Shown here piece by piece: positions 6,748-23,552 of a stretch of 64,000 bases of DNA (its first letter is position 1; each line of letters starts with the position of its first letter). Origin of the DNA: Escherichia coli (GTDB lineage: Bacteria > Pseudomonadota > Gammaproteobacteria > Enterobacterales > Enterobacteriaceae); the NCBI RefSeq assembly GCF_016903815.1, contig NZ_CP069973.1; one strand, 5' to 3'. The notes under the pieces were generated by a model. It saw only the letters and a program-made list of their open reading frames with translations. It had not been told where the DNA came from and did not search any database. Made by a program: the position numbers and the translations under genes.

Positions 6748-6926
6748 TGTTTATTTATCACTTTGGCAGAGTAATTATCCTGTGCACTATTAATAGCAAT
6801 GTCGCCATGCACATTTACCTTGCAGTTAATTGAATAAAAATTTAACTGGCATCAGTCCTAAAAAAATTGATTTCATCCGCAGGCTATTGACAGAATAATT
6901 CAGACTGGTCTTTCAGGCATCCAGAC

Positions 6927-6937
6927 ACGCTACCGCC
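6927..6937 (-). promoter_or_regulatory. ops element (GGCGGTAGCGT) within JUMPStart leader of the colanic acid operon, RfaH antitermination site
   Basis: Exact reverse complement acgctaccgcc found in the long 5' leader upstream of wza. Confidence 0.7.
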
Positions 6938-7405
6938 CCTGGCTTTTTAGCTACCAATACACTGATTTAGCTTAATTTTTAAAACCCTCTCAACATACAG
7001 TCGTTGATGAGAAAGGGTTATTGCGGAAATTAACTTCCGAATATAAGGTGACATTATGGTAATTGAATATTGGCTCTCCAATAATGCAGGAGGAAGTGTT
7101 ACAGCTAACGGAATAGCAGGCAAGGTAACAATTCGGTAATTGGCTATTTTTAAGAATTATATTAAGTGTCATTCAATATGGTTTTTAGGAGTTTCTTTAG
7201 GTTGACAATATTTAATATTGCGCCTCCACATGCGATATTTCTTAAATAATGTTTTATTATTACCACTTTTAATTCAGGGATAATGTGAGGTTATTACCCT
7301 CAAATAATATGAGATAAATAGTGCTGCAACATTGCATTTTTGCCCCGATTTATCCATGATCGAATTGTGACATTTGTCATACAACGAATAGGTTTTGTAC
7401 TTACT

Positions 7406-8989
7406 ATGGAATGGATTGCCGATCCGTCTATCTGGGCCGGGTTAATCACGCTGATTGTGATCGAACTGGTCCTCGGCATTGATAACCTGGTCTTTATTGC
7501 CATCCTCGCCGAAAAACTACCGCCGAAGCAGCGCGACCGCGCACGGGTTACCGGGCTGCTGCTGGCGATGTTAATGCGCCTGTTACTGCTGGCGTCAATC
7601 TCCTGGCTGGTCACCCTGACGCAACCGCTGTTCAGCTTCCGCTCGTTTACCTTTAGCGCCCGCGACTTAATCATGCTGTTTGGTGGTTTCTTCCTGCTGT
7701 TCAAAGCCACGATGGAGCTGAACGAACGGCTGGAGGGGAAAGACAGCAATAACCCCACGCAACGCAAAGGTGCGAAGTTCTGGGGGGTGGTGACACAAAT
7801 TGTGGTACTGGACGCCATCTTCTCACTCGACTCGGTGATTACCGCCGTCGGGATGGTCGACCATTTACTGGTCATGATGGCCGCCGTGGTTATCGCTATC
7901 AGCCTGATGTTGATGGCCAGCAAGCCGTTAACGCAATTTGTTAACAGTCACCCGACCATCGTTATTCTCTGCTTAAGCTTCCTGTTGATGATTGGCTTTA
8001 GCCTGGTGGCAGAAGGTTTCGGCTTCGTCATTCCGAAAGGCTACCTGTACGCTGCCATTGGTTTCTCGGTGATGATCGAGGCGCTCAATCAGTTGGCTAT
8101 CTTTAACCGTCGACGTTTTCTTTCCGCTAACCAGACACTGCGCCAGCGGACTACCGAAGCGGTAATGCGCCTGCTTAGCGGGCAAAAAGAAGATGCGGAA
8201 CTGGACGCCGAAACCGCGTCCATGCTGGTGGATCATGGTAACCAGCAGATCTTTAATCCGCAGGAACGGCGGATGATTGAGCGGGTACTTAATCTTAATC
8301 AGCGTACCGTCAGCAGCATTATGACGTCGCGCCACGATATTGAGCATATCGATCTCAACGCGCCGGAAGAAGAAATCCGCCAGTTGCTGGAGCGAAATCA
8401 GCATACGCGGGTGGTGGTTACCGACGGTGATGACGCAGAAGATTTGCTCGGTGTTGTTCACGTTATCGACCTGCTACAACAGTCTCTGCGCGGCGAACCG
8501 CTCAACCTGCGGGTGTTGATTCGCCAGCCGCTGGTGTTCCCGGAAACCTTGCCGTTGTTACCTGCCCTGGAGCAGTTCCGTAATGCCCGCACGCACTTTG
8601 CTTTTGTAGTGGATGAGTTTGGCTCGGTGGAAGGGATTGTGACATTAAGTGACGTCACTGAAACCATTGCCGGTAACTTACCGAACGAAGTGGAAGAGAT
8701 CGACGCCCGCCATGATATTCAGAAAAATGCGGACGGTTCCTGGACGGCGAATGGTCATATGCCGCTGGAGGATCTGGTGCAATATGTGCCGCTGCCGCTG
8801 GATGAAAAACGTGAATATCACACCATTGCCGGGCTATTGATGGAATATTTGCAGCGTATTCCAAAACCTGGCGAAGAAGTTCAGGTGGGGGATTATTTGC
8901 TTAAAACGTTGCAGGTGGAAAGCCATCGCGTGCAGAAGGTGCAGATTATTCCGCTGCATAAGGATGGCGAGTTGGAGTACGAGGTGTGA
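7406..8989 (+). CDS. yegH: Inner membrane protein YegH (TerC-like membrane domain plus CBS/CorC-type domains)
   Basis: ORF track 549 aa; internal start [13 protein letters not shown] gives 527 aa; multi-TM N-terminus and soluble C-terminal region. Confidence 0.85.
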
Positions 8990-9262: not shown

Positions 9263-11116
9263 CTACATCTTCTCCAGCAACTTCTTCACATCTTTGCCAT
9301 TGCGGGAATCTTTATTCCGCTCGGCCCAGTCATTCAGGCGACGTTTCGCTTCGTCCTGTAGATGTTTGCGCAGTAACTGATCCACTTGCAGACTGTAATT
9401 GAGTTGCTGCCAGTTGCCATAAACCCGCAGCGGTACTGGCGTTTCTTTGAGGAAATCAATCAGTTTGCTTTCCCCGTTCCAGCCACCCACGACCCGAATA
9501 TCAAACTGGGTGTCGCAGGTTTGATCTGCCAGATTCAACATGCCTTCCCCTGTCAGCGCCAGCACAGGCGATTGACCTTGCATGTCGTTTAACGTCACGA
9601 CGCCATCCTTCAACGTCAAATCGGTGGTAAAGCGGTCAAGACGCGTTACGTTATCGAAGTTTTCAGCGGCCTTCACATCACCACCATTACGTTCTACCGC
9701 TTGCTGAATCATCTGCTGGAAGTTCATCCCTTCCATGCGCGTGTCGGTCATTTCGACATGTGCCTGTCCTTGCCAGTTGTGGCGGAATGCGTCGGCATCT
9801 ATGTCAGCACCGGAGAAATCACCAGCCAGTGACATTTTTCCGGTCAACGAAATCGGATAGTTAAACGCCTTCAGAATGGTACCAATCTCAACGTTTTCCA
9901 GCCGTGGCTGGAAGTTTATCCGCGGATTTACTGATGTCGCGTCCAGCGTGCCCGGCAGTGAAACCTGTCCACCGTTAAGTTTGCCCTGCAACTGGATAAT
10001 CTCCAGCAAACCCGACTTGTTGGTCATTTGCGTGGCAACATCTGTAAAATTCACTCCGCGCCAGCGCACGTTACTGGCCTGCAACAAAATATCAGCCGTA
10101 AAGCCTTGCAGTCCCTGATATGCCGGTTCATCAATACGCGAAGAAATGACCGGGCGCGGCAATGTTGATTGGCTCTGCCCCTGCTGCGCGGCACCGTTTT
10201 CACCATTCGCTGTTTCATTAAGCGGGATGAGGTTGTCAAGATTCAGTTGCGGGAATTGCAGTCTCAGCTGCCATTCAGGTTTCTCTGTCAGCGTGACCTG
10301 TGCTTGCCCGCTCAGCGTGCTGTCATTGGCGGTCAAGCTGATTTGGTTAAATGAAAGGCGTTTATGTGACTCCTGCCACTGGGCCTGGAAACTCCCCTGC
10401 CCCTGAATACCTTGTTTTGGTAAATCTGCACCCTGCAACTGCCAGTTAATTTGTTCAATAGCCGCCGTTAAATCATGCGGATAATCAGAAGCATCTACCG
10501 TACCGTTAAGGGATATCGTGAGATCGCGCTGATCGCGATTAACCCGCCCGGAGAACTCAAATGAGCCACGATGTTGGGGATCTTGTTCCATTTGCAGGCG
10601 GATATTGCGGATTGTCACCTGCTCGTCATCTTCATGCTGGAACACCAGCACGCTGTCCGCCACCTTAAGACTGGATATATCAAACGACCATCCGCGATCG
10701 TCTGACAGATCCGGCAAGGTATTGTCGCGCGGTGCAACCGGAGCGTCTTCACTGCGCACCGCTTCCGTCTGCGGCGTCAGTTGGATCACTGCCCCTTTTA
10801 GCATCACCTGCTTAACGCTCAGTTGATGACTCAGTAGTGGTAAAAGCGCCACGTCCAGACGCATGTTGTCGGCGCGAACCAGTGGCTGGCTTGCGCCCTG
10901 GGCGGTGAGAGACATTCGCCCGGAGAGGATACTAAGCTGCGGCCAGACGTGCCAACGCAGTGGCCCGTCGAGCTGCAATTGATAACCGCTACGTGCAGCA
11001 ACTTGCTTGACCATATAGTCGCGGAAATCATTCGGATTCACCAGCAACACTAACGCAGATAACCCGGCCACCAGCACGACCAGGAGTATCATCAGCGTCG
11101 TCAGAAATCGTCTCAT
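9263..11116 (-). CDS. asmA: Outer membrane assembly protein AsmA
   Basis: 617-aa ORF with N-terminal TM anchor (LMILLVVLVAGLSALVLLV); size and synteny next to dcd/udk. Confidence 0.9.
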   Translation of the reverse strand: MRRFLTTLMILLVVLVAGLSALVLLVNPNDFRDYMVKQVAARSGYQLQLDGPLRWHVWPQLSILSGRMSLTAQGASQPLVRADNMRLDVALLPLLSHQLSVKQVMLKGAVIQLTPQTEAVRSEDAPVAPRDNTLPDLSDDRGWSFDISSLKVADSVLVFQHEDDEQVTIRNIRLQMEQDPQHRGSFEFSGRVNRDQRDLTISLNGTVDASDYPHDLTAAIEQINWQLQGADLPKQGIQGQGSFQAQWQESHKRLSFNQISLTANDSTLSGQAQVTLTEKPEWQLRLQFPQLNLDNLIPLNETANGENGAAQQGQSQSTLPRPVISSRIDEPAYQGLQGFTADILLQASNVRWRGVNFTDVATQMTNKSGLLEIIQLQGKLNGGQVSLPGTLDATSVNPRINFQPRLENVEIGTILKAFNYPISLTGKMSLAGDFSGADIDADAFRHNWQGQAHVEMTDTRMEGMNFQQMIQQAVERNGGDVKAAENFDNVTRLDRFTTDLTLKDGVVTLNDMQGQSPVLALTGEGMLNLADQTCDTQFDIRVVGGWNGESKLIDFLKETPVPLRVYGNWQQLNYSLQVDQLLRKHLQDEAKRRLNDWAERNKDSRNGKDVKKLLEKM

Positions 11117-11137
11117 GGTATCCTCAATGGGCCTGAA

Positions 11138-11719
11138 TTAGTCTTTATCGATTCGGCTGGCTACCGCGCCCTGCTGGTTGCGATATTTCGCATCTTCACG
11201 GCGGTTGTAAGGTCGCGCCGCCGGGCCGGAAAGCGGCTCAAAGCTCAGCGCACCAATTAACATGCCCGGACGCAGCGCCAGCGGCAGCTTACCGGAGTTG
11301 TAGAACTCCAGCACAATACAGCCAGACCAGCCCGGATCGATACGGTGCGCGGTGACGTGCACCATAAGCCCCAGACGCGCCAGTGAGGAACGACCGTCCA
11401 GCCATCCCACCAGATCGGCTGGCAGCGTCACCGACTCCAGCGTCACCGCCAGCGCCAGCTCTCCTGGGTGAAGATAAAACGCCTCGCTTTCATCGAGTAC
11501 GATCTCATCGCTCATCACGCGGTCAAGCGCGGCGCTCACTTCATCTTTGGGACCGCTCAGATCGATAAACGCTGCCGTGTGACCACGGAAGGTACGAAAT
11601 TTATTGCCCAGGCGCACATCCACCGTCGCGCCATTAATACGCTCCACTGGCGGACGTGGGTTGATCGACAAACGGCCTTCATCAAGCCAGGCTTCAATAT
11701 CTCGGTCACACAGACGCAT
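11138..11719 (-). CDS. dcd: dCTP deaminase
   Basis: 193-aa ORF beginning [19 protein letters not shown]; size and synteny. Confidence 0.9.
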
Positions 11720-11810
11720 GGCATTTTCTCCTTTCGTGCATCACTCCCTTAACGCCAATTACGTCAAGGGCATACCAGGTTATCACTGAACGGTACACAA
11801 TTTATCAAGC

Positions 11811-12452
11811 TTATTCAAAGAACTGACTTATTTTCGCTTTCAATATATCGATGGCGATGCGGTTTTTCCCGCCGCGCGGCACGATAATGTCCGCATATTG
11901 TTTAGAAGGCTCAATGAATTGCAGGAACATCGGGCGCACGGTTTTTTGATATTGCGCCATCACTGAATCCATTGAACGCCCACGCTCGTTAACGTCACGC
12001 TTGATGCGGCGCATCAGGCAGATATCCAGCGGGGTATCAACGAAAATTGAGAAGTTAAGTTCATCACGCAAACGCGCATCCGTCAGCAGCAAAATGCCTT
12101 CGAGAATGATGACTTTCTTCGGCTCAACCGTCACCGTTTCTTTCATACGCGTATGTTCAACATAGCTGTAAACCGGCAGGTCAATGGCCGAGCCGCGTTT
12201 CAATGCTTGTAAATGCTCAAGCAGCAGGCTGTGATCCATCGCGCTGGGATGGTCGTAGTTGGTCTTAACGCGTTCTTCCATCGACAGATGGCTTTGATCT
12301 TTGTAATAGCAGTCTTCGGGAATTACGCCGATGTGTTCATCACCGACTTGCTCACGTAATTCACGATAAAGGGTACTGGCAATAAGACTCTTGCCGGAAG
12401 CCGATGCGCCAGCGATACCGATAATGACGCACTGATGAGACTGATCAGTCAT
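11811..12452 (-). CDS. udk: Uridine/cytidine kinase
   Basis: ORF track 234 aa; internal start [22 protein letters not shown] (P-loop) gives 213 aa. Confidence 0.9.
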
Positions 12453-12769
12453 ATATTTAGCGACCTGATTAACCTGGATGTTAGGAAGGGGGCGACGAAG
12501 CGCCAAACGCGGCAATTATAGGGATTTCATCCGCCTGATACCAGTCGAATAGCGTTGCCGCGCGCTCAGAGTAATTGTTGACGAATAATTCCCGGTGGCA
12601 AATTACGTTGTTCAGTTTTAATGCAAGGTAAAAATTGTTATACGAAGTTGCGCAAATTATCCGCCTTTACGTCACTTTATGAGCAATTCGCATATAAAAT
12701 GTAAAACTTTTGTACTAGCATAAACACAGAAACGAATACTGGCGACCTGGTCTTACGGATAAAGCGGTA

Positions 12770-16982: not shown

Positions 16983-17115
16983 CGCATCTCCTTGTTAATC
17001 CGCTTTCAGCATAAACGTTATTCAGACGCTACGCTTTGCTTTCATATTCCGGTTGTCGCGACGGCAACATTTCGCTAAAGTCACGCCCCTTCTTCACCGG
17101 CATGGGGATTATTTC

Positions 17116-18468
17116 GTGTTTATTGGTTTTGATTACGGTACAGCAAACTGTTCAGTGGCGGTCATGCGCGACGGTAAGCCGCAATTACTGAAAATGGAAA
17201 ACGACAGCACGCTGCTGCCTTCAATGCTTTGCGCGCCAACGCGTGAAGCGGTAAGCGAATGGCTGTACCGCCATCATGATGTTCCGGCAGACGACGATGA
17301 AACGCAGGCGCTGTTGCGTCGGGCGATTCGTTATAACCGCGAAGAAGATATCGATGTTACGGCGAAAAGCGTGCAGTTCGGTCTTTCCTCACTGGCACAG
17401 TACATTGATGATCCAGAAGAAGTGTGGTTTGTGAAATCACCAAAATCGTTCCTCGGTGCCAGCGGCTTAAAACCGCAGCAGGTAGCGCTGTTTGAGGATC
17501 TGGTCTGCGCAATGATGTTGCACATTCGCCAGCAGGCGCAGGCACAGCTGCCAGAAGCGATTACTCAGGCGGTGATTGGTCGCCCTATCAACTTCCAGGG
17601 GCTGGGCGGCGATGAAGCAAACACCCAGGCGCAGGGGATTCTGGAACGCGCGGCGAAGCGTGCCGGGTTTAAGGATGTGGTATTCCAGTACGAGCCGGTC
17701 GCGGCTGGGCTGGATTACGAAGCCACCTTGCAGGAAGAAAAACGGGTGCTGGTGGTGGATATCGGCGGTGGTACGACTGACTGTTCATTGCTGCTGATGG
17801 GGCCGCAGTGGCGTTCGCGTCTCGATCGTGAAGCCAGCCTGCTGGGTCACAGTGGTTGCCGTATTGGCGGTAACGATCTGGATATCGCACTGGCGTTTAA
17901 AAACCTGATGCCGTTACTGGGCATGGGTGGCGAAACCGAAAAAGGCATCGCCCTGCCGATTCTGCCGTGGTGGAATGCGGTTGCCATCAACGACGTACCT
18001 GCGCAAAGTGATTTCTACAGTAGTGCCAACGGTCGTCTGCTTAACGATCTGGTACGCGATGCCCGCGAACCGGAAAAAGTGGCCCTGTTACAGAAAGTCT
18101 GGCGTCAGCGTTTAAGCTATCGCCTGGTACGTAGCGCAGAAGAGAGCAAAATTGCGCTTTCAAGCGTAGCGGAAACCCGCGCCTCACTGCCGTTTATCAG
18201 CGATGAACTGGCTACGCTGATTAGCCAGCAAGGGCTGGAAAGCGCCCTCAACCAGCCACTGGCGCGGATTCTGGAACAGGTGCAACTGGCGCTGGATAAC
18301 GCCCAAGAAAAACCGGATGTTATCTATCTGACCGGCGGTAGCGCCCGTTCACCGCTGATTAAAAAAGCGCTGACAGAACAGTTGCCGGGCATTCCGATTG
18401 CAGGTGGCGATGACTTTGGCTCCGTCACCGCCGGGCTGGCACGCTGGGCGGAAGTGGTGTTTCGTTAA
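17116..18468 (+). CDS. yegD: Hsp70-family (DnaK-like) protein YegD
   Basis: Actin/Hsp70 ATPase fold motifs (IGFDYGTANCSVA, VVDIGGGTTD). ORF track starts at 17053 (471 aa); GTG at 17116 gives about 450 aa. Start choice is uncertain. Confidence 0.8.
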   Translation: MFIGFDYGTANCSVAVMRDGKPQLLKMENDSTLLPSMLCAPTREAVSEWLYRHHDVPADDDETQALLRRAIRYNREEDIDVTAKSVQFGLSSLAQYIDDPEEVWFVKSPKSFLGASGLKPQQVALFEDLVCAMMLHIRQQAQAQLPEAITQAVIGRPINFQGLGGDEANTQAQGILERAAKRAGFKDVVFQYEPVAAGLDYEATLQEEKRVLVVDIGGGTTDCSLLLMGPQWRSRLDREASLLGHSGCRIGGNDLDIALAFKNLMPLLGMGGETEKGIALPILPWWNAVAINDVPAQSDFYSSANGRLLNDLVRDAREPEKVALLQKVWRQRLSYRLVRSAEESKIALSSVAETRASLPFISDELATLISQQGLESALNQPLARILEQVQLALDNAQEKPDVIYLTGGSARSPLIKKALTEQLPGIPIAGGDDFGSVTAGLARWAEVVFR

Positions 18469-18480
18469 TTGAAAACTGGC

Positions 18481-20421
18481 TCAGCAACGGCTTAAATCAG
18501 CCTGCGCCTGAGCCAGTTTTTCTGCCGCCTGACGTAACGGTTCCATCAACGGCATGGTCCGTGCTGGAGCATGAAGGCGGAATCGCTGCAACTCTGTCGC
18601 ACCGACAGTCAGCGCCGATTCCAGCCGATGTCGTTTGGCGGCCATTTTTGCCATTACCGCTTGTCTGTCTGCAGGCGTTACCGCTTCGTTCGGCCTGAAA
18701 ACAAAACGGCGTTCGCAACTCGCTTTCCAGTCGATAACCGCCTGGGTCAGATGATCACCAAAACCTTTCACTTGCTTAACGCTCCGTCGGGTAACGTCTG
18801 CCGCCGTTTCAATACCAAAGGACCGTAACGCCGCTTTACGCGCAGGGCCAACGCCGGGAATAGAGGCAACATCAATAAAAAATCCCTCCAGAAACTTCTG
18901 CTTCTGCCGTTCCCTTGCGGTGTCCTGAAGTGCTGCCAGAGCGCGTTTCTCTTCTTCCGGTAACCCGAGAATTTCGTCCTTCATTTTTTCGAGCATCGCC
19001 CGTTTGGCGATAAAACCTTCCAGCCCGCCCAACTGTTGGATCTGGCTGACTAAATGGTCATAGTCCATTTTCGCGCGATTAAATGCCTCACGGCGTTGCT
19101 GGATTTCTGCTTTATAAGCTTTGCTTGTCAGACTGCCAATAATCCAGATAGCCGCCAGCACAGGAACCAAAATGATATAACGCGGTTCTGCCTGAAGGCC
19201 GCAAAGCAACAGCGATAACGCTGACAGTGCGATCTCAATCAGAATGATGTATTCGCGCCGTAACAGGCCTAAAGGAAGCGGCCTGCCAGCAGCCTGGAAA
19301 TGATCGGGTAATGGCAATTGCAATGCTGGCGGTGCTACTGACGCCATCACCATCGCCCAGACTTTCGCCAGCACAAAATCACCGCTGGTGGTAATGACCT
19401 CTTCGCCGAGATCAATAAAATAGATAACGCCTTGATTATCCAGCGCACACCACGGGCAGTCAGTCAAATGACCGGGGTAAACATGCATTGCCGAAACGGT
19501 ACATTTCTTTAACTGTTGGCGTAGTAAATCAAGTGCCGCTACCCACGCTTTTGCCGTCGGACGCCCGGTTGCCACGCCACTTTCCGTGAATGCCTGCTGA
19601 AACATGGCTTCAACATCACCCGGTAACATCGACAGCGGAATAGATCGTGGCGGCGGTTTTAAACCACGTCGCTGATTATCTGACGCGTAGGCATAACGGA
19701 AATGGGCAATATCCGTCTCCAGTGCATTACCCGCATCAGAGATAAGCGGTACACCGGAATAAGGATGCCGCCCACCAAACAAGACGTGAAAAATCAGCAA
19801 CGCAAGGCCAAAATTATCGTGATTCGCGGTGCGTTCAAAGCCGACAAATGATGGCAAGGTTTGTAGCTCTGGCGGCGTAAAATGCGACACGCCGACTTCG
19901 CATAAATGCAGTGTGCCATTGGCGTTAATCTGAAAGGAGTCGCTATCAATCAACACCACTTTGCTGTCACGGCCTACCATAAAGCTGTTCTGGTTTACGT
20001 CACCCACGACGTGCTCGTGAACCGTAGCAAAAGATGAAGCAATATTGCGTGCAACATAGAGTAGAAAATCCCACGCACAATGAGGGTAACGTTGACGACG
20101 ATGTGCCGGGCTATAGATCATATGAATCGGTTCTTTACCAGAAACTTTTGGCATCATAAAACCGATAACCTTTCCGCCTCGTCCACCGTGAAGCGTTGCC
20201 TGCGGCCAGGCGACATAATTCAGCAACTGTGCGTCAGCTGTCGCAGCCATAAAGGCAAGTTTGTCCTGTTTTAAGGCGGGTGGCGGCGTGTGATAAATCT
20301 TGGCGACGCTATCGACAAACTCCTCGATATCATAAACCGCACCTTCACCACCTTTGCCCAGTTCACGCCCGAGAGTGGTCAATTCATCTGTCGATGTAAA
20401 TACTTTTATATTTTTCTTCAT
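18481..20421 (-). CDS. yegI: Eukaryotic-like Ser/Thr protein kinase YegI
   Basis: 646-aa ORF with N-terminal kinase-like domain, a central TM segment and a C-terminal region. Confidence 0.8.
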   Translation of the reverse strand: MKKNIKVFTSTDELTTLGRELGKGGEGAVYDIEEFVDSVAKIYHTPPPALKQDKLAFMAATADAQLLNYVAWPQATLHGGRGGKVIGFMMPKVSGKEPIHMIYSPAHRRQRYPHCAWDFLLYVARNIASSFATVHEHVVGDVNQNSFMVGRDSKVVLIDSDSFQINANGTLHLCEVGVSHFTPPELQTLPSFVGFERTANHDNFGLALLIFHVLFGGRHPYSGVPLISDAGNALETDIAHFRYAYASDNQRRGLKPPPRSIPLSMLPGDVEAMFQQAFTESGVATGRPTAKAWVAALDLLRQQLKKCTVSAMHVYPGHLTDCPWCALDNQGVIYFIDLGEEVITTSGDFVLAKVWAMVMASVAPPALQLPLPDHFQAAGRPLPLGLLRREYIILIEIALSALSLLLCGLQAEPRYIILVPVLAAIWIIGSLTSKAYKAEIQQRREAFNRAKMDYDHLVSQIQQLGGLEGFIAKRAMLEKMKDEILGLPEEEKRALAALQDTARERQKQKFLEGFFIDVASIPGVGPARKAALRSFGIETAADVTRRSVKQVKGFGDHLTQAVIDWKASCERRFVFRPNEAVTPADRQAVMAKMAAKRHRLESALTVGATELQRFRLHAPARTMPLMEPLRQAAEKLAQAQADLSRC

Positions 20422-20618
20422 AATGTTTCAAGGGCAGTCATATTATATTTCAATGAATAATAACACTGCCCATTATAATTATTTCTATATGGGAAGAGTC
20501 CACTCAAGAATAAAAATGATAATGTAATTTCATCAGGATACAATTCAATTCCAACCTGATAATGATTAACTTCCACAGGTTTTGCTAACTTTTACTACAC
20601 AGAGATTCTGGAGAAAAA

Positions 20619-21080
20619 ATGAAAAAGATATTACTTATGTTGAGTCTGCTATTTTTTACTACCGCGGGCTTTAGTGAAGTTTCGGATACGTTAGTGACGG
20701 GAGGTTATGATAAACAAGCGATGTCTGACGCCATTCAACATGCGCGGAAAGAAACTGATAAATTCATCGAGGTTATGAATAAAAAAGATGCCGATACTTT
20801 CGCGGTCAAAGCCCCGATAACCGATCACGGAAGAACAGAGCATTTCTGGCTTACGGATGTCACTTATTCTAACGGCATGTTTATTGGCGTAATAAGCAAT
20901 GACCCTGGTATTGTTACAAACGTAGAATATGGTCAGGAGTGGAAAATCAAGAAAGAAGATATTTCAGACTGGATGTATACGCGCGGGGATAAAATTTACG
21001 GCGGTTATACCATTGATCCTTTATTGGTCACCTATCCAAAAGAAGAAGCCGACGAGCTAAGAGCAAAATTAGTTCGCTAA
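20619..21080 (+). CDS. yegJ: Secreted protein YegJ (DUF2314-like)
   Basis: 153-aa ORF with signal peptide MKKILLMLSLLFFTTAGFS; divergent from yegI. Confidence 0.8.
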   Translation: MKKILLMLSLLFFTTAGFSEVSDTLVTGGYDKQAMSDAIQHARKETDKFIEVMNKKDADTFAVKAPITDHGRTEHFWLTDVTYSNGMFIGVISNDPGIVTNVEYGQEWKIKKEDISDWMYTRGDKIYGGYTIDPLLVTYPKEEADELRAKLVR

Positions 21081-21144
21081 CCAGCCATTATATTAATTGC
21101 TTAAACTGGCGGTTGAACTGTTGTCTTCAACCGCCATGCGATGT

Positions 21145-21906
21145 TCATTCTGTCCACAGCGCCAGTGCCAACGTTTTATCATCATCGGTACGCTCGTTTA
21201 CCGCCGGGCCGGACAAAAACTGCTTTAACAATTCAGGTAATAAATCGAGTTGTTCCTGCGTTGCTGACGCCAGCCCATTGAAAAACGGGGTAAAGAAAGG
21301 CACATGGGGAGAATTATCCAGCATATTTAACGCCAGCCGCTGGATACCATCCGTAAATGCTGCAACTTTGTGCGCACGCTCAGTGCTGGTGAAAGTTTCC
21401 AGTCTGGAAACCGCATCTTCATCGGTAATGAAGTGCGTCATGTTGGCATATTCACCCACCATCGGCGTGAGCGGCAGTTGCAGACCGTGCCCCAAATCTA
21501 CCACCATGCCGCCATCGCCAATCTGCATAATCAAGGTGCCGTCAGGCGATGAAATCAGTCCCAGAAATGTGCAGGCAAAATCGCGAACCTCTAATTCTTT
21601 TGCCTCTGCCTCGGCAAAAAGTCGCTGACGAATGGTCAGCACAATATCCGTGGCGAGGACATCATTAAGCCCCAATTCCCCGCCCTGCACTTTTTGCGAC
21701 ATATAAGCCATCGCTTCATTGACGGCGAGCATCGCGCCTTCGCCACCCTGCGAGACACTGCCTGCGCCATCAGCGACAAATACCGACAATAATGGCTGCT
21801 GGTCATTTAACCAGGCAACCTGCATCTGGCAGGCATCCTGGCAAGGCAAGTCCGCGCTGATGTGCGACGTTCCAACGGTTGATGCATAGACCAGACGCCA
21901 GCTCAC
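21145..21906 (-). CDS. pphC: PP2C-type Ser/Thr phosphatase PphC (YegK)
   Basis: 253-aa ORF; overlaps yegL stop by 4 bp (operon). Confidence 0.8.
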
Positions 21907-22562
21907 ACTGACGTCCAGCCTTTTGGCGCTTCCAGCACAACTTCCGTTCCCGGCGTGGAGTGGGAAACCGAACGCAGCGAACTGGATAACCAGCTAAACA
22001 GTTCACGGAATTGTAATCCCTGCAGTGGCAAAGGCTGACGAACGCTGATTTGTGCCAAAGTCTTCATATCCGCCCCCTGAACACCGATGGAAAAGAAGGC
22101 AAACTTCTTATCTTCTTCCCCCTGAAACACTTTGTTGGCGGCAGCCTGCCACTCATCGGTTGGAGCGCCATCGGTGATCAGGAAAATCCACGGGCGATAA
22201 TAGGAAATACCATTGGCGCGATACTCACGTTTGCGCTCCTCAACCATATCCAGGGCTTTGGTAATGGCGGCCCCCATTGGTGTATCGCCCTGGGCAAACA
22301 GGATGGGCGGGAAAAAATTAGCGGCGCTGGTAAAGGGTTGTTCCACATGCACCGGGCCGAACGTCACAATACCGAGTTCCACTCTTTTTAAGGCCAGCGA
22401 ATCGGCAAGCAGCTCATCGCGAAAGGTAACCAATCCGGCGTTAAGTTCATTAATGGGTCTACCGTTCATAGAACCAGAAACATCCAGCAGCAAAATGCAG
22501 GGGCAACGTGGTTCCGGGTTACTGGCAAAATCGCTGGTGGCAAACGTGATTTGTTCGCTCAT
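21903..22562 (-). CDS. yegL: von Willebrand factor A domain protein YegL (TerY-like)
   Basis: 219-aa ORF with vWA MIDAS motif (DVSGSM) near the N-terminus. Confidence 0.85.
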
Positions 22563-22744
22563 AAGAAATCCTTTCTTAGAGAATTATTGAGGTCCGGTAT
22601 CATACCGACTGCAACAATGAAATATGAGCAGGCAAAGCAACTTTCAGAATTAGGCCCGGCGGCGCAGAAAATTTTGCTATTCGCCTCGCAAGAACGGAGA
22701 GCCGTCGATTGACACTAAGGGCGGAGTGACATAATTTCAGGAGT

Positions 22745-22890
22745 GAGGGTTAGGGAGAGGTTTCCCCCTCCCCCTGGTGTTCTTAGTAAGCCTGGAAGCT
22801 AATCACTAAGAGTATCACCAGTATGATGACGTGCTTCATCATAACCCTTTCCTTATTAAAAGCCCTCTTCTCCGGGAGAGGGTTTCCCGT
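22745..22890 (+). ncRNA. sibA: Sib antisense sRNA, copy 1 (approximate ends)
   Basis: Antisense to the ibs ORF; ends in a GC hairpin plus T-rich tract (ccctcttctccgggagaggg tttcccgttt). Boundaries estimated. Confidence 0.45.
22783..22842 (-). CDS. ibsA: Ibs type I toxin peptide, copy 1 (MMKHVIILVILLVISFQAY)
   Basis: Minus-strand 19-codon ORF encoding a hydrophobic Ibs-family peptide inside tandem repeat unit 1. Confidence 0.75.
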   Translation of the reverse strand: MMKHVIILVILLVISFQAY

Positions 22891-23079
22891 TTCAGCGTCC
22901 CGCTGAAATCGTCGGCTTACCTCCTTTCGCCCTGAATGCAGTCTATCGCTAACGCGTGAACAAAATAGTTTCCTCTGTGATTATTGCGTAACGACTCGCA
23001 AAGAATATTTGCTGGCAGGATCGCAGACTGCAAAGCCTGCAGATTGACAATCTTATCGTGAAGGCATAATTTCAGGAGT

Positions 23080-23225
23080 GAGGGTAGAGCGGGGTTTCCC
23101 CCGCCCTGGTAGTCTTAGTAAGCGGGGAAGCTTATGACTAAGAGCACCACGATGATGAGTAGCTTCATCATGACCCTTTCCTTATTTAAGGCCCCTTCCT
23201 CGGGAGGGGCTTTCCCGTTTCAGCG
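23080..23225 (+). ncRNA. sibB: Sib antisense sRNA, copy 2 (approximate ends)
   Basis: Antisense to ibs copy 2 with a matching terminator hairpin; boundaries estimated. Confidence 0.45.
23115..23171 (-). CDS. ibsB: Ibs type I toxin peptide, copy 2 (MMKLLIIVVLLVISFPAY)
   Basis: Minus-strand ORF encoding an Ibs-family peptide inside repeat unit 2. Confidence 0.75.
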   Translation of the reverse strand: MMKLLIIVVLLVISFPAY

Positions 23226-23404
23226 TCCCGCTGAAATCGTCGACTTACCTCCTTTCGCCCTGTATGCAGTCTATCGCTGACTTGCGGATAAAATAGTTTC
23301 CAGTGTGATTATTGCGTAACGTCTCGCAAAGAATATTTGCTGGCAGGATCGCAGACTGCAAAGCCTGCAGATTGACAATCTTATCGTGAAGGCATACTTT
23401 CAGG

Positions 23405-23552
23405 AGTGAGGGTAGAGCGGGGTTTCCCCCGCCCTGGTAGTCTTAGTATGCTGGGTAGCTAATCACTAAGAGCACCACGATGATGATCCACTTCATCATG
23501 ACCCTTTCCTTATTTAAGGCCCCTTCCTCGGGAGGGGCTTTCCCGTTTCAGC
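23405..23552 (+). ncRNA. Sib antisense sRNA, copy 3 (approximate ends)
   Basis: Antisense to ibs copy 3 with the same terminator-like hairpin; boundaries estimated. Confidence 0.4.
23443..23499 (-). CDS. Ibs type I toxin peptide, copy 3 (MMKWIIIVVLLVISYPAY)
   Basis: Third Ibs-family ORF in a third tandem repeat unit (period about 330 bp). Confidence 0.7.
   Translation of the reverse strand: MMKWIIIVVLLVISYPAY

Follow-up and report, generated by a model that had tools for sequence, protein, structure and literature searches.

TerY-P systems combine a von Willebrand factor A (vWA) protein resembling TerY, a protein phosphatase 2C (PP2C) and a protein kinase. According to PMC11090510, a zinc ribbon is joined to the kinase in the systems of Anantharaman 2012, and an OB fold takes its place in the anti-phage form of Gao 2020, which stands alone and is a distantly related triad that defends against phage. 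The ter cluster has likewise been reported to inhibit phages (PMC11003894, citing Whelan 1995). The present analysis concerns the yegL-pphC-yegI locus of Escherichia coli, located at positions 18481-22562 of a 64,000-nucleotide stretch of contig NZ_CP069973.1 (assembly GCF_016903815.1), hereafter the window. These positions are E. coli chromosome, with 100% identity to strain 7/2. With high confidence, yegL, pphC and yegI were assigned to the TerY-P class of triads, and sequence comparison placed all three products closer to the classical ter-cluster triad than to the phage-validated form.

The three genes lay on the minus strand in the order yegL (21903-22562; 219 aa, a TerY-type vWA protein with a complete metal ion-dependent adhesion site, MIDAS), pphC, also named yegK (21145-21906; a 253-aa PP2C Ser/Thr phosphatase), and yegI (18481-20421; 646 aa, a membrane-anchored Ser/Thr kinase), here considered the first, second and third genes of a cassette. 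The open reading frames (ORFs) detected here and the RefSeq annotation agreed on yegI, yegJ, pphC and yegL, and bore out the gene positions given in a preliminary description of this DNA. The 4-bp overlap that it had reported between yegK and yegL was also read directly, the yegL stop codon and the GTG start codon of yegK sharing GTGA at 21903-21906. All three members of the kinase-phosphatase-vWA block presented there were present, but they were not contiguous in the window, where the ORF of yegJ (20619-21080, plus strand), which is not part of the cassette, lay between pphC and yegI on the opposite strand.

The classical triad used as reference was that of a Klebsiella plasmid, in which the order is TerY1, TerX, TerY2, TerY3 (with a TerY-C domain), PP2C (577 aa) and kinase (499 aa). 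A tblastn search of plasmids with YegL recovered its own family and then about 2300 enterobacterial plasmids carrying the three TerY paralogues of the tellurite-resistance cluster, which were the nearest plasmid matches outside the family. In BLASTP comparisons, YegL matched TerY1, TerY3 and TerY2 (E = 3e-25, 1e-17 and 1e-17, respectively), PphC matched the ter PP2C (4e-6) and YegI the ter kinase (2e-5). Hidden Markov models (HMMs) of the Yeg families, built from nine Yeg-type triads, scored the same proteins at 92, 80 and 74 bits for the three TerY paralogues, 66 bits for the PP2C and 42 bits for the kinase, against 3.4, 1.5 and 10.9 bits for the vWA, PP2C and kinase proteins of the Gao type. 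The BLASTP alignment of YegI with the ter kinase took in the last part of the kinase domain as well as the zinc ribbon and paired CPWC with CPYC, whereas hhalign with a 74-sequence YegI alignment extended over 327 columns, comprising the whole kinase domain and the ribbon (98.7%, E = 1.6e-16); with the same profile, the best kinase in the Protein Data Bank (PDB) reached only 29.5 bits. The Yeg proteins are thus homologous in all three parts, and in the same order, to the ter-cluster triad. The TerY-P kinship proposed in the preliminary description was in this sense well founded, but the relative that it named, the phage-validated TerY-P, was the wrong one.

The ter-cluster triad, carried by IncHI2 and Klebsiella plasmids, shares with the Yeg triad the vWA/PP2C/kinase order as well as this three-part homology, and in both kinases a zinc ribbon directly follows the kinase domain and IDxD replaces DFG. 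YegLKI differs in standing alone, without TerD, TerZ, TerX or other ter genes, and in having one vWA gene where the ter cluster has three. PphC (253 aa) lacks the long N-terminal extension of the 577-aa ter-cluster PP2C. After the ribbon, YegI continues into a transmembrane hairpin, a coiled coil and a helix-hairpin-helix (HhH) region, whereas the ter kinase has a soluble tail of about 100 aa, and the second zinc ligand is a His in YegI (C-x5-H) and a Cys in the ter kinase (C-x5-C...C-P-Y-C). Compared with TerY-P in the broad sense, the family showed three adjacent, co-directional genes for vWA, PP2C and kinase (split in the window itself by the secondary yegJ insertion), a TerY-type vWA, a homologous PP2C and a kinase with a putative zinc ribbon on its C-terminal side. 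Association with ter genes, or with modules for restriction or DNA processing, which is frequent but not obligatory in TerY-P, was found neither at the window nor as a conserved neighbourhood at the 87 homologous loci described below.

The assignments of the first two proteins made in the preliminary description, a vWA protein with a MIDAS motif for YegL and a PP2C-like protein for YegK, held. YegL matched Pfam VWA (2e-9), and its translation contained the motif DVSGSM (D27-x-S29-x-S31; 22467-22484, minus strand). The full MIDAS set (D27, S29, S31, T94 and D131) was at least 97% conserved among 76 homologues. YegL and TerY also had the motifs DxSxSM, WRP..FL(I/M)TDGxPTD and F..W(L/V)SxS in common, the last two also seen in the forms RPW.FL.TDG.PTD and F..WLS.S. 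YegL was the most conserved component of the cassette, with 85% identity to the copy of Klebsiella spallanzanii, versus about 61% for the phosphatase and the kinase. PphC matched Pfam PP2C_2 (1.3e-52) and is a PP2C-like phosphatase that dephosphorylates YegI (Rajagopalan and Dworkin, bioRxiv 10.1101/303594).

YegI had no Pfam kinase match, HHH_5 being the only family found in the Pfam scan, and its identity as a kinase follows from published biochemistry and from its predicted fold. It is an active kinase that prefers Mn2+, has VGDxxQxS and DSD instead of HRD and DFG, and autophosphorylates at Ser153, Ser160 and Ser162 (bioRxiv 10.1101/819920). An AlphaFold2 model was built on 74 homologues (predicted local distance difference test score, pLDDT, 92), and its best PDB match in Foldseek was Mycobacterium tuberculosis PknB (E = 6e-8, TM-score 0.71). 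Together with conserved motifs, the model delimited a Hanks-type kinase domain at aa 1-302 (19516-20421, minus strand), with a GxGGEG loop, K41, the catalytic loop GDVNxxN (D141, N143) and IDSDS (D159, D161, S162) replacing DFG. G24, G25, E26, K41, D141, N143, D159, D161 and S162 were invariant in the 74 sequences of the YegI family, from E. coli to Methanoregula, as were, across bacteria and archaea, the zinc-ribbon-like residues C307, H313, C322, W324 and C325. The latter belong to a putative zinc-ribbon-like element, C307-x5-H313-x8-C322-P-W-C325, which formed a beta-hairpin in the model (aa 304-330; 19432-19512, minus strand) and was separated by a linker from the membrane helices.

The preliminary description had given this kinase-like protein one transmembrane segment; the kinase assignment stood, but there were two membrane helices. 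In the model they formed a transmembrane hairpin at aa 389-435 (19117-19257, minus strand; helices 389-409 and 414-435), the second running on into a long helix, and YegI has been described as a two-pass inner-membrane protein with both ends cytoplasmic (bioRxiv 10.1101/819920). The cytoplasmic C-terminal module (aa 440-646; 18484-19104, minus strand; AlphaFold2 fragment, pLDDT 93) consisted of a coiled coil, tandem HhH motifs and, at its end, a helix some 60 residues long. The tandem HhH region (aa 515-571; 18709-18879, minus strand) matched Pfam HHH_5 at 1.4e-4, and HHH_5 matched 35 of the 74 family members at E ≤ 0.1. Two forms of the protein are common in E. coli: the window encoded the 646-aa allele, which lacks an HG immediately upstream of the catalytic loop (TVHE--HVVGD; 20007-20030, aa 131-138), while 648-aa alleles and other species have TIHEHGHVVGD.

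For the phage-validated type, the reference was the cloned TerY-P of E. coli G3/10, taken from the supplement of the Stokar-Avihail preprint (bioRxiv 10.1101/2022.08.27.505566; Sorek laboratory), whose genes are named TerY-P anti-phage proteins by RefSeq. As a control, PADLOC recognized the G3/10 proteins as TerY (3.5e-173, 572 bits), PP2C (5.6e-108, 358 bits) and STK_OB (9e-265, 878 bits). With the Yeg proteins, the TerY model gave only a partial match (E = 0.013, 13 bits), the PP2C model none at E ≤ 10 and the STK_OB model none. BLASTP of the Yeg proteins against G3/10 returned E values of 0.006 for the vWA, 1.2 for the PP2C and 0.028 for the kinase, and hhalign of YegI with the Gao kinase reached 67% over 173 columns of the kinase core. 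These comparisons used single G3/10 sequences rather than family alignments of the PP2C and the kinase, and when plasmids were searched by tblastn with the STK_OB kinase, only two weak matches were obtained. The G3/10 PP2C did not match Pfam PP2C_2, unlike PphC. An NCBIfam scan of the three Yeg proteins gave no TerY-P match, but this silence was uninformative, as the genuine G3/10 proteins were missed as well.

The likeness to the Gao type was thus limited to the three domain classes, the gene order, the non-canonical GDxxxxN and IDxD motifs found in both kinases, and a kinase C-terminal module of nucleic-acid-binding type. That module is an OB fold in the Gao kinase, whereas the tail of YegI (transmembrane hairpin, coiled coil, HhH) was wholly helical in the AlphaFold2 model, without an OB fold. 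The G3/10 TerY-P was rare and accessory, occurring in 4-5 of 5426 complete E. coli genomes beside a type I restriction-modification system and IS5, whereas YegLKI is core, the region being present in 5416 of the 5426. Phage defence has been demonstrated only for the Gao type.

YegI and PphC also resemble bacterial Hanks-type kinase/PP2C pairs such as PknB/PstP and PrkC/PrpC in the kinase fold, in the adjacent cognate PP2C that dephosphorylates the kinase, and in activation by autophosphorylation. YegI has the eukaryotic-like kinase fold, including the catalytic Lys and Asp residues (K41, D141 and D159 invariant), and its partner PP2C dephosphorylates it. Unlike PknB and PrkC, however, YegI is without a sensor domain outside the cell, whether PASTA or another, and both its ends are cytoplasmic; it lacks HRD and DFG and carries a zinc ribbon and an HhH tail; and it is obligately linked to a vWA gene, with a patchy, mobile distribution instead of a lineage-conserved one.

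Beyond E. coli, a scan of one genome per species yielded 319 loci. Among the best 79 were loci of Beta-, Gamma- and Alphaproteobacteria, Paenibacillus, the Actinobacteria Georgenia and Frankia, Acidobacteria, Chlorobiaceae, Synergistaceae and Pirellulales, as well as of eight Methanoregula or Methanomicrobiales archaea. The archaeal triads, found in metagenome-assembled genomes (L062, L064, L066, L075, L076, L078, L080 and L087), encoded kinase-HhH proteins with 34-37% identity to E. coli YegI, which implies either inter-domain transfer or bin contamination. Among 87 loci homologous to the Yeg triad, the genes were adjacent, co-directional and in the order vWA/PP2C/kinase in 78, the exceptions being contig ends or disrupted copies, and protein sizes were nearly constant (about 219, 253 and 646 aa). 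An association of three genes at 78 of 87 unrelated loci is far beyond chance.

Plasmid copies were found in Cupriavidus, Ralstonia, Pseudomonas megaplasmids, Agrobacterium, Rhizobium, Sphingobium and others, and 46 of the 83 plasmid records matching YegI were conjugative plasmids. Clustering of 898 flanking ORFs revealed no conserved fourth gene, only lineage-restricted neighbours (YegD was not a conserved partner), which indicates that the cassette is self-contained and mobile. It was not phage-borne: among 50,697 phage records, a single weak match was obtained, restricted to the kinase and zinc-ribbon region. This match (hit H51) lay at 6859-7860 of MT836238.1, an unannotated contig from human faeces, with 27% identity to aa 11-330 of YegI.

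The nearest relatives outside Escherichia were equally distant from the E. coli proteins (62% identity in Klebsiella, 60% in Burkholderiales), which points to a horizontal origin. The GC content of yegL, pphC and yegI was ordinary, and the ratio of nonsynonymous to synonymous substitution rates (dN/dS) within Escherichia was low, at 0.03-0.08 for yegL, 0.15-0.21 for pphC and 0.12-0.15 for yegI. Acquisition was therefore old, and the genes are still under purifying selection. In two Escherichia lineages, the yegI ORF was shortened to 462 aa (L012, 7980-9365) and 519 aa (L013, 4500-6056) while yegL and pphC were intact, which may represent lineage-specific loss of the kinase.

Of 88 loci, only that of the window had its phosphatase and kinase genes separated by a gap. 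When it was aligned with Escherichia genomes that lack yegJ, an AT-rich, yegJ-carrying segment of about 780 bp (20381-21160; 33-40% GC) was seen to have taken the place of about 55 bp spanning an ancestral GTGA overlap of pphC and yegI, and it supplied the last 4 codons of PphC and approximately the first 17 codons of YegI. The segment was present in 1924 of the 5426 complete E. coli genomes (35%); other Escherichia species lacked it. K strains had already been reported to have their operon split by yegJ, unlike B strains and most pathogenic strains (Rajagopalan and Dworkin, bioRxiv 10.1101/303594 and 10.1101/819920). The segment uncouples yegI from yegL-pphC; in the yegJ-bearing form the operon is split and yegI is probably transcribed separately. 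Counts from promoter and terminator scans were not above the shuffled expectation and led to no conclusion on regulation. In a 2026 study (PMC13232886), YegJ bound the N-terminal domain of RNase E and the locus was barely expressed; YegJ itself has a signal-peptide-like N-terminus despite this reported binding. In E. coli PCP06021 (L092), an IS1 (1748-2445) was located at this pphC/yegI junction, where the yegJ segment was reduced to about 90 bp; the junction looks like a recurrent insertion site.

From these results, the cassette is proposed to be a self-contained TerY-P-class phospho-switch that was gained horizontally around the base of the genus Escherichia, has been kept under purifying selection and has a defence-type function, a statement to which, taken as a whole, a probability of about 55% is given. 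In the proposed mechanism, PphC would keep YegI unphosphorylated and off until a trigger at the membrane gathers YegI molecules, leading to their mutual phosphorylation and then to phosphorylation of targets. The trigger could be sensed by the MIDAS site of YegL, by the putative DNA-binding HhH tail of YegI, or by both, and would most likely be foreign DNA entering the cell, a phage protein, or stress involving DNA or metal. Growth arrest or a block of the invader would follow, a response of a defence type resembling abortive infection. As links to DNA, the HhH module of YegI may be cited, together with the overexpression screen in which YegL and YegI were both classed as DNA-damage-up, their overproduction raising endogenous DNA damage (bioRxiv 10.1101/354589).

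A predicted defence role for the cassette is plausible, and the evidence for a role against invaders is circumstantial. The reported phage inhibition by the ter cluster and the phage defence provided by the distantly related Gao triad count in its favour. So does a sample of 30 immediate neighbours at 20 diverse loci, in which 4 of the 20 loci had defence-type immediate neighbours, an enrichment that is only suggestive since the sample had no matched background. In Pseudomonas alcaligenes (L041, 2522-6486), a complete Gabija system with full-length GajA and GajB lay 57 bp from the triad. A Wadjet JetA and a WYL protein adjoined the Piscinibacter copy (L015, 10189-12578), an RtcR-like protein and a type II cytosine methyltransferase the Chromatium copy (L029, 4599-6092 and 11034-12515), and PDC-S01 a Synergistaceae copy (L082, 10002-11351). 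Genes for AbiEii, HipA and DUF262 proteins were located beside plasmid copies.

Several points weigh against this interpretation, in addition to the lack of a matched background. No phage, plasmid or stress phenotype of yegL, pphC or yegI was found in the literature, and the papers on YegI and PphC, the study of YegJ and RNase E, and the overexpression screen mention neither TerY-P nor phage. In the phage-resistance screens of Mutalik 2020 in K-12 and BL21, the Yeg genes were unnamed in the main text and had small scores in the supplementary tables consulted, although such screens are poorly suited to detecting a three-gene system of 4 kb. The E. coli locus had no defence neighbours, PADLOC recognized none of the three Yeg proteins, and the expression of yegL, pphC and yegI was very low. 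Defence systems are typically accessory and seldom lie in the core genome, and K-12 carries the locus yet is the standard permissive host for coliphages. The roles given above to YegL and to the HhH tail are themselves inferred. The odds of a defence-type function, considered separately from the rest of the proposal, were accordingly put somewhat below even. More tentative still is the idea that YegLKI triads form a distinct, unrecognized defence family of bacteria and archaea, in which the HhH tail of the membrane kinase and the vWA protein would detect invader DNA or protein and trigger a phosphorylation-driven block. If this were true, the K-12 core genome would hold a cryptic, poorly expressed immune system, uncoupled by the yegJ insertion in about one third of strains.

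The main rival to defence is a module of the cell's own stress signalling, that is, a membrane-anchored kinase/phosphatase switch with a vWA adaptor responding to metal, oxidative, envelope or DNA-damage stress, whose targets would be host proteins of repair or stationary-phase physiology, a role first proposed for tellurite-linked TerY-P triads. The core status of the locus in E. coli and the purifying selection on it agree with such a role, as does the homology to the ter-cluster triad, which is read as a metal-sensing phospho-switch in PMC11090510. Weak stationary-phase expression has also been reported (bioRxiv 10.1101/819920), the increase in DNA damage upon overproduction fits too, and several plasmid copies lay beside a Y-family polymerase and an S24 peptidase, or beside a peptidase associated with the SOS response. 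However, neither a stress phenotype nor an inducing condition was found in the literature, none of the 87 loci had ter genes or other metal-related partners, and the very patchy, plasmid-borne and cross-domain distribution is typical of accessory conflict systems and not of housekeeping signalling. Stress signalling was on balance judged possible but unlikely.

An improbable alternative is that the cassette serves mobile elements, acting in the entry or establishment of conjugative DNA, for example by adjusting host responses once single- or double-stranded DNA arriving at the membrane is sensed, or by excluding competing plasmids, and that the E. coli copy is a domesticated relic. A membrane-anchored kinase with an HhH tail of DNA-binding type would suit this function, as would the frequency of conjugative plasmids among the plasmid records, with hosts including Pseudomonas megaplasmids and plasmids of Agrobacterium and Rhizobium, and neighbours including genes for H-NS, HU, TraR/DksA-family and type IV secretion system proteins. 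Most of the 79 genome loci, in contrast, were on large chromosomal contigs without conjugation genes nearby, the cassette also occurred in archaea, and in E. coli it is fixed in the chromosome under purifying selection.

Decay into a functionless remnant in E. coli, split by yegJ and silenced, was considered very improbable. The interruption of the operon in 35% of genomes, the IS1 at the same junction in one strain, the very low expression and the shortened yegI ORFs of two other Escherichia lineages could all be read this way, but this explanation was rejected on the dN/dS values of 0.03-0.21 for all three genes across Escherichia; moreover, the ORFs were intact in the window, 5416 of 5426 genomes have kept the locus, and enzymatic activity has been shown for the recombinant proteins (bioRxiv 10.1101/303594 and 10.1101/819920). 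Bona fide membership in the Gao 2020/PADLOC TerY-P family with an STK_OB kinase, which the shared domain classes, gene order and kinase motifs might suggest, was hardly credible and was rejected on the lack of PADLOC, BLASTP and HMM support, the mere fold-level similarity, the missing OB fold and the diverging PP2C.

The genes, both enzymatic activities and the TerY-P class were already known, and Anantharaman 2012 may already list yegL, yegK and yegI. The new elements are the demonstrated homology of all three Yeg proteins with the ter-cluster triad instead of the validated TerY-P, a precise account of how the yegJ segment replaced the junction, and a separate subtype, defined here by its kinase, zinc ribbon, transmembrane hairpin, coiled coil and HhH, which occurs widely among bacteria and archaea and escapes PADLOC. 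One family framework thereby takes in the classical ter triad, the TerY-P validated against phage and a kinase of the core genome. Phage biology and the discovery of defence systems use K-12 as their reference host, yet its own yegL-pphC-yegI has been assigned no physiological role; in public databases the proteins are called just "vWA domain-containing protein", "PphC" and "protein kinase YegI". That earlier work found no phenotype is explained here by K-12 carrying the split, weakly expressed form. A conserved, mobile, TerY-P-homologous cassette overlooked by PADLOC and by NCBI naming offers a hypothesis that is cheap to test, and the functional residues to target are pinpointed: K41, D141 and S162 of the kinase, D27, S29 and S31 of the MIDAS, C322 and C325 of the zinc ribbon, and the HhH tail.

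Concerning the surroundings of the locus, the window neighbours were yegD on the yegI side and, on the yegL side, the ibs/sib repeats followed by mdtA. The preliminary description had the block flanked by ibs/sib repeats; three copies were found on the yegL side and none on the other. They were tandem SIB RNA/ibs toxin repeats on the plus strand, at 22709-22857, 23044-23186 and 23372-23514 (Rfam SIB_RNA, 149, 143 and 139 bits), between yegL and mdtA, and the ibs coding sequences are annotated in the identical strain 7/2. The suggestion that the block is an old defence island fixed in the core genome was supported in part, as its core status and its patchy, plasmid-rich distribution fit an old horizontal gain, but the E. 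coli locus lay outside any defence island. The three modules in the window had a period of about 330 bp, and strain PCP06021 had two annotated ibs genes at the same site, which shows that copy number differs between strains.

On the other flank, yegD (17053-18468) gave a short match to the PADLOC candidate model PDC-M61B (E = 9e-6), limited to 27 residues around the Hsp70 ATPase motif, which probably reflects generic similarity of actin-like ATPases. In Cupriavidus, Paraburkholderia and Caballeronia, genes for a J-domain protein and for a signal-peptide-bearing protein with Cys-rich repeats lay convergent downstream of the kinase gene (L003, 7865-10251; L059, L067 and L070, approximately 9968-12483). 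The convergent downstream gene in E. coli is the Hsp70-like yegD, and the parallel to these J-domain neighbours may be a coincidence. On a Pseudomonas fulva megaplasmid (L004, 11712-13920), a second gene annotated with a helix-hairpin-helix domain was located about 4 kb downstream of the triad.

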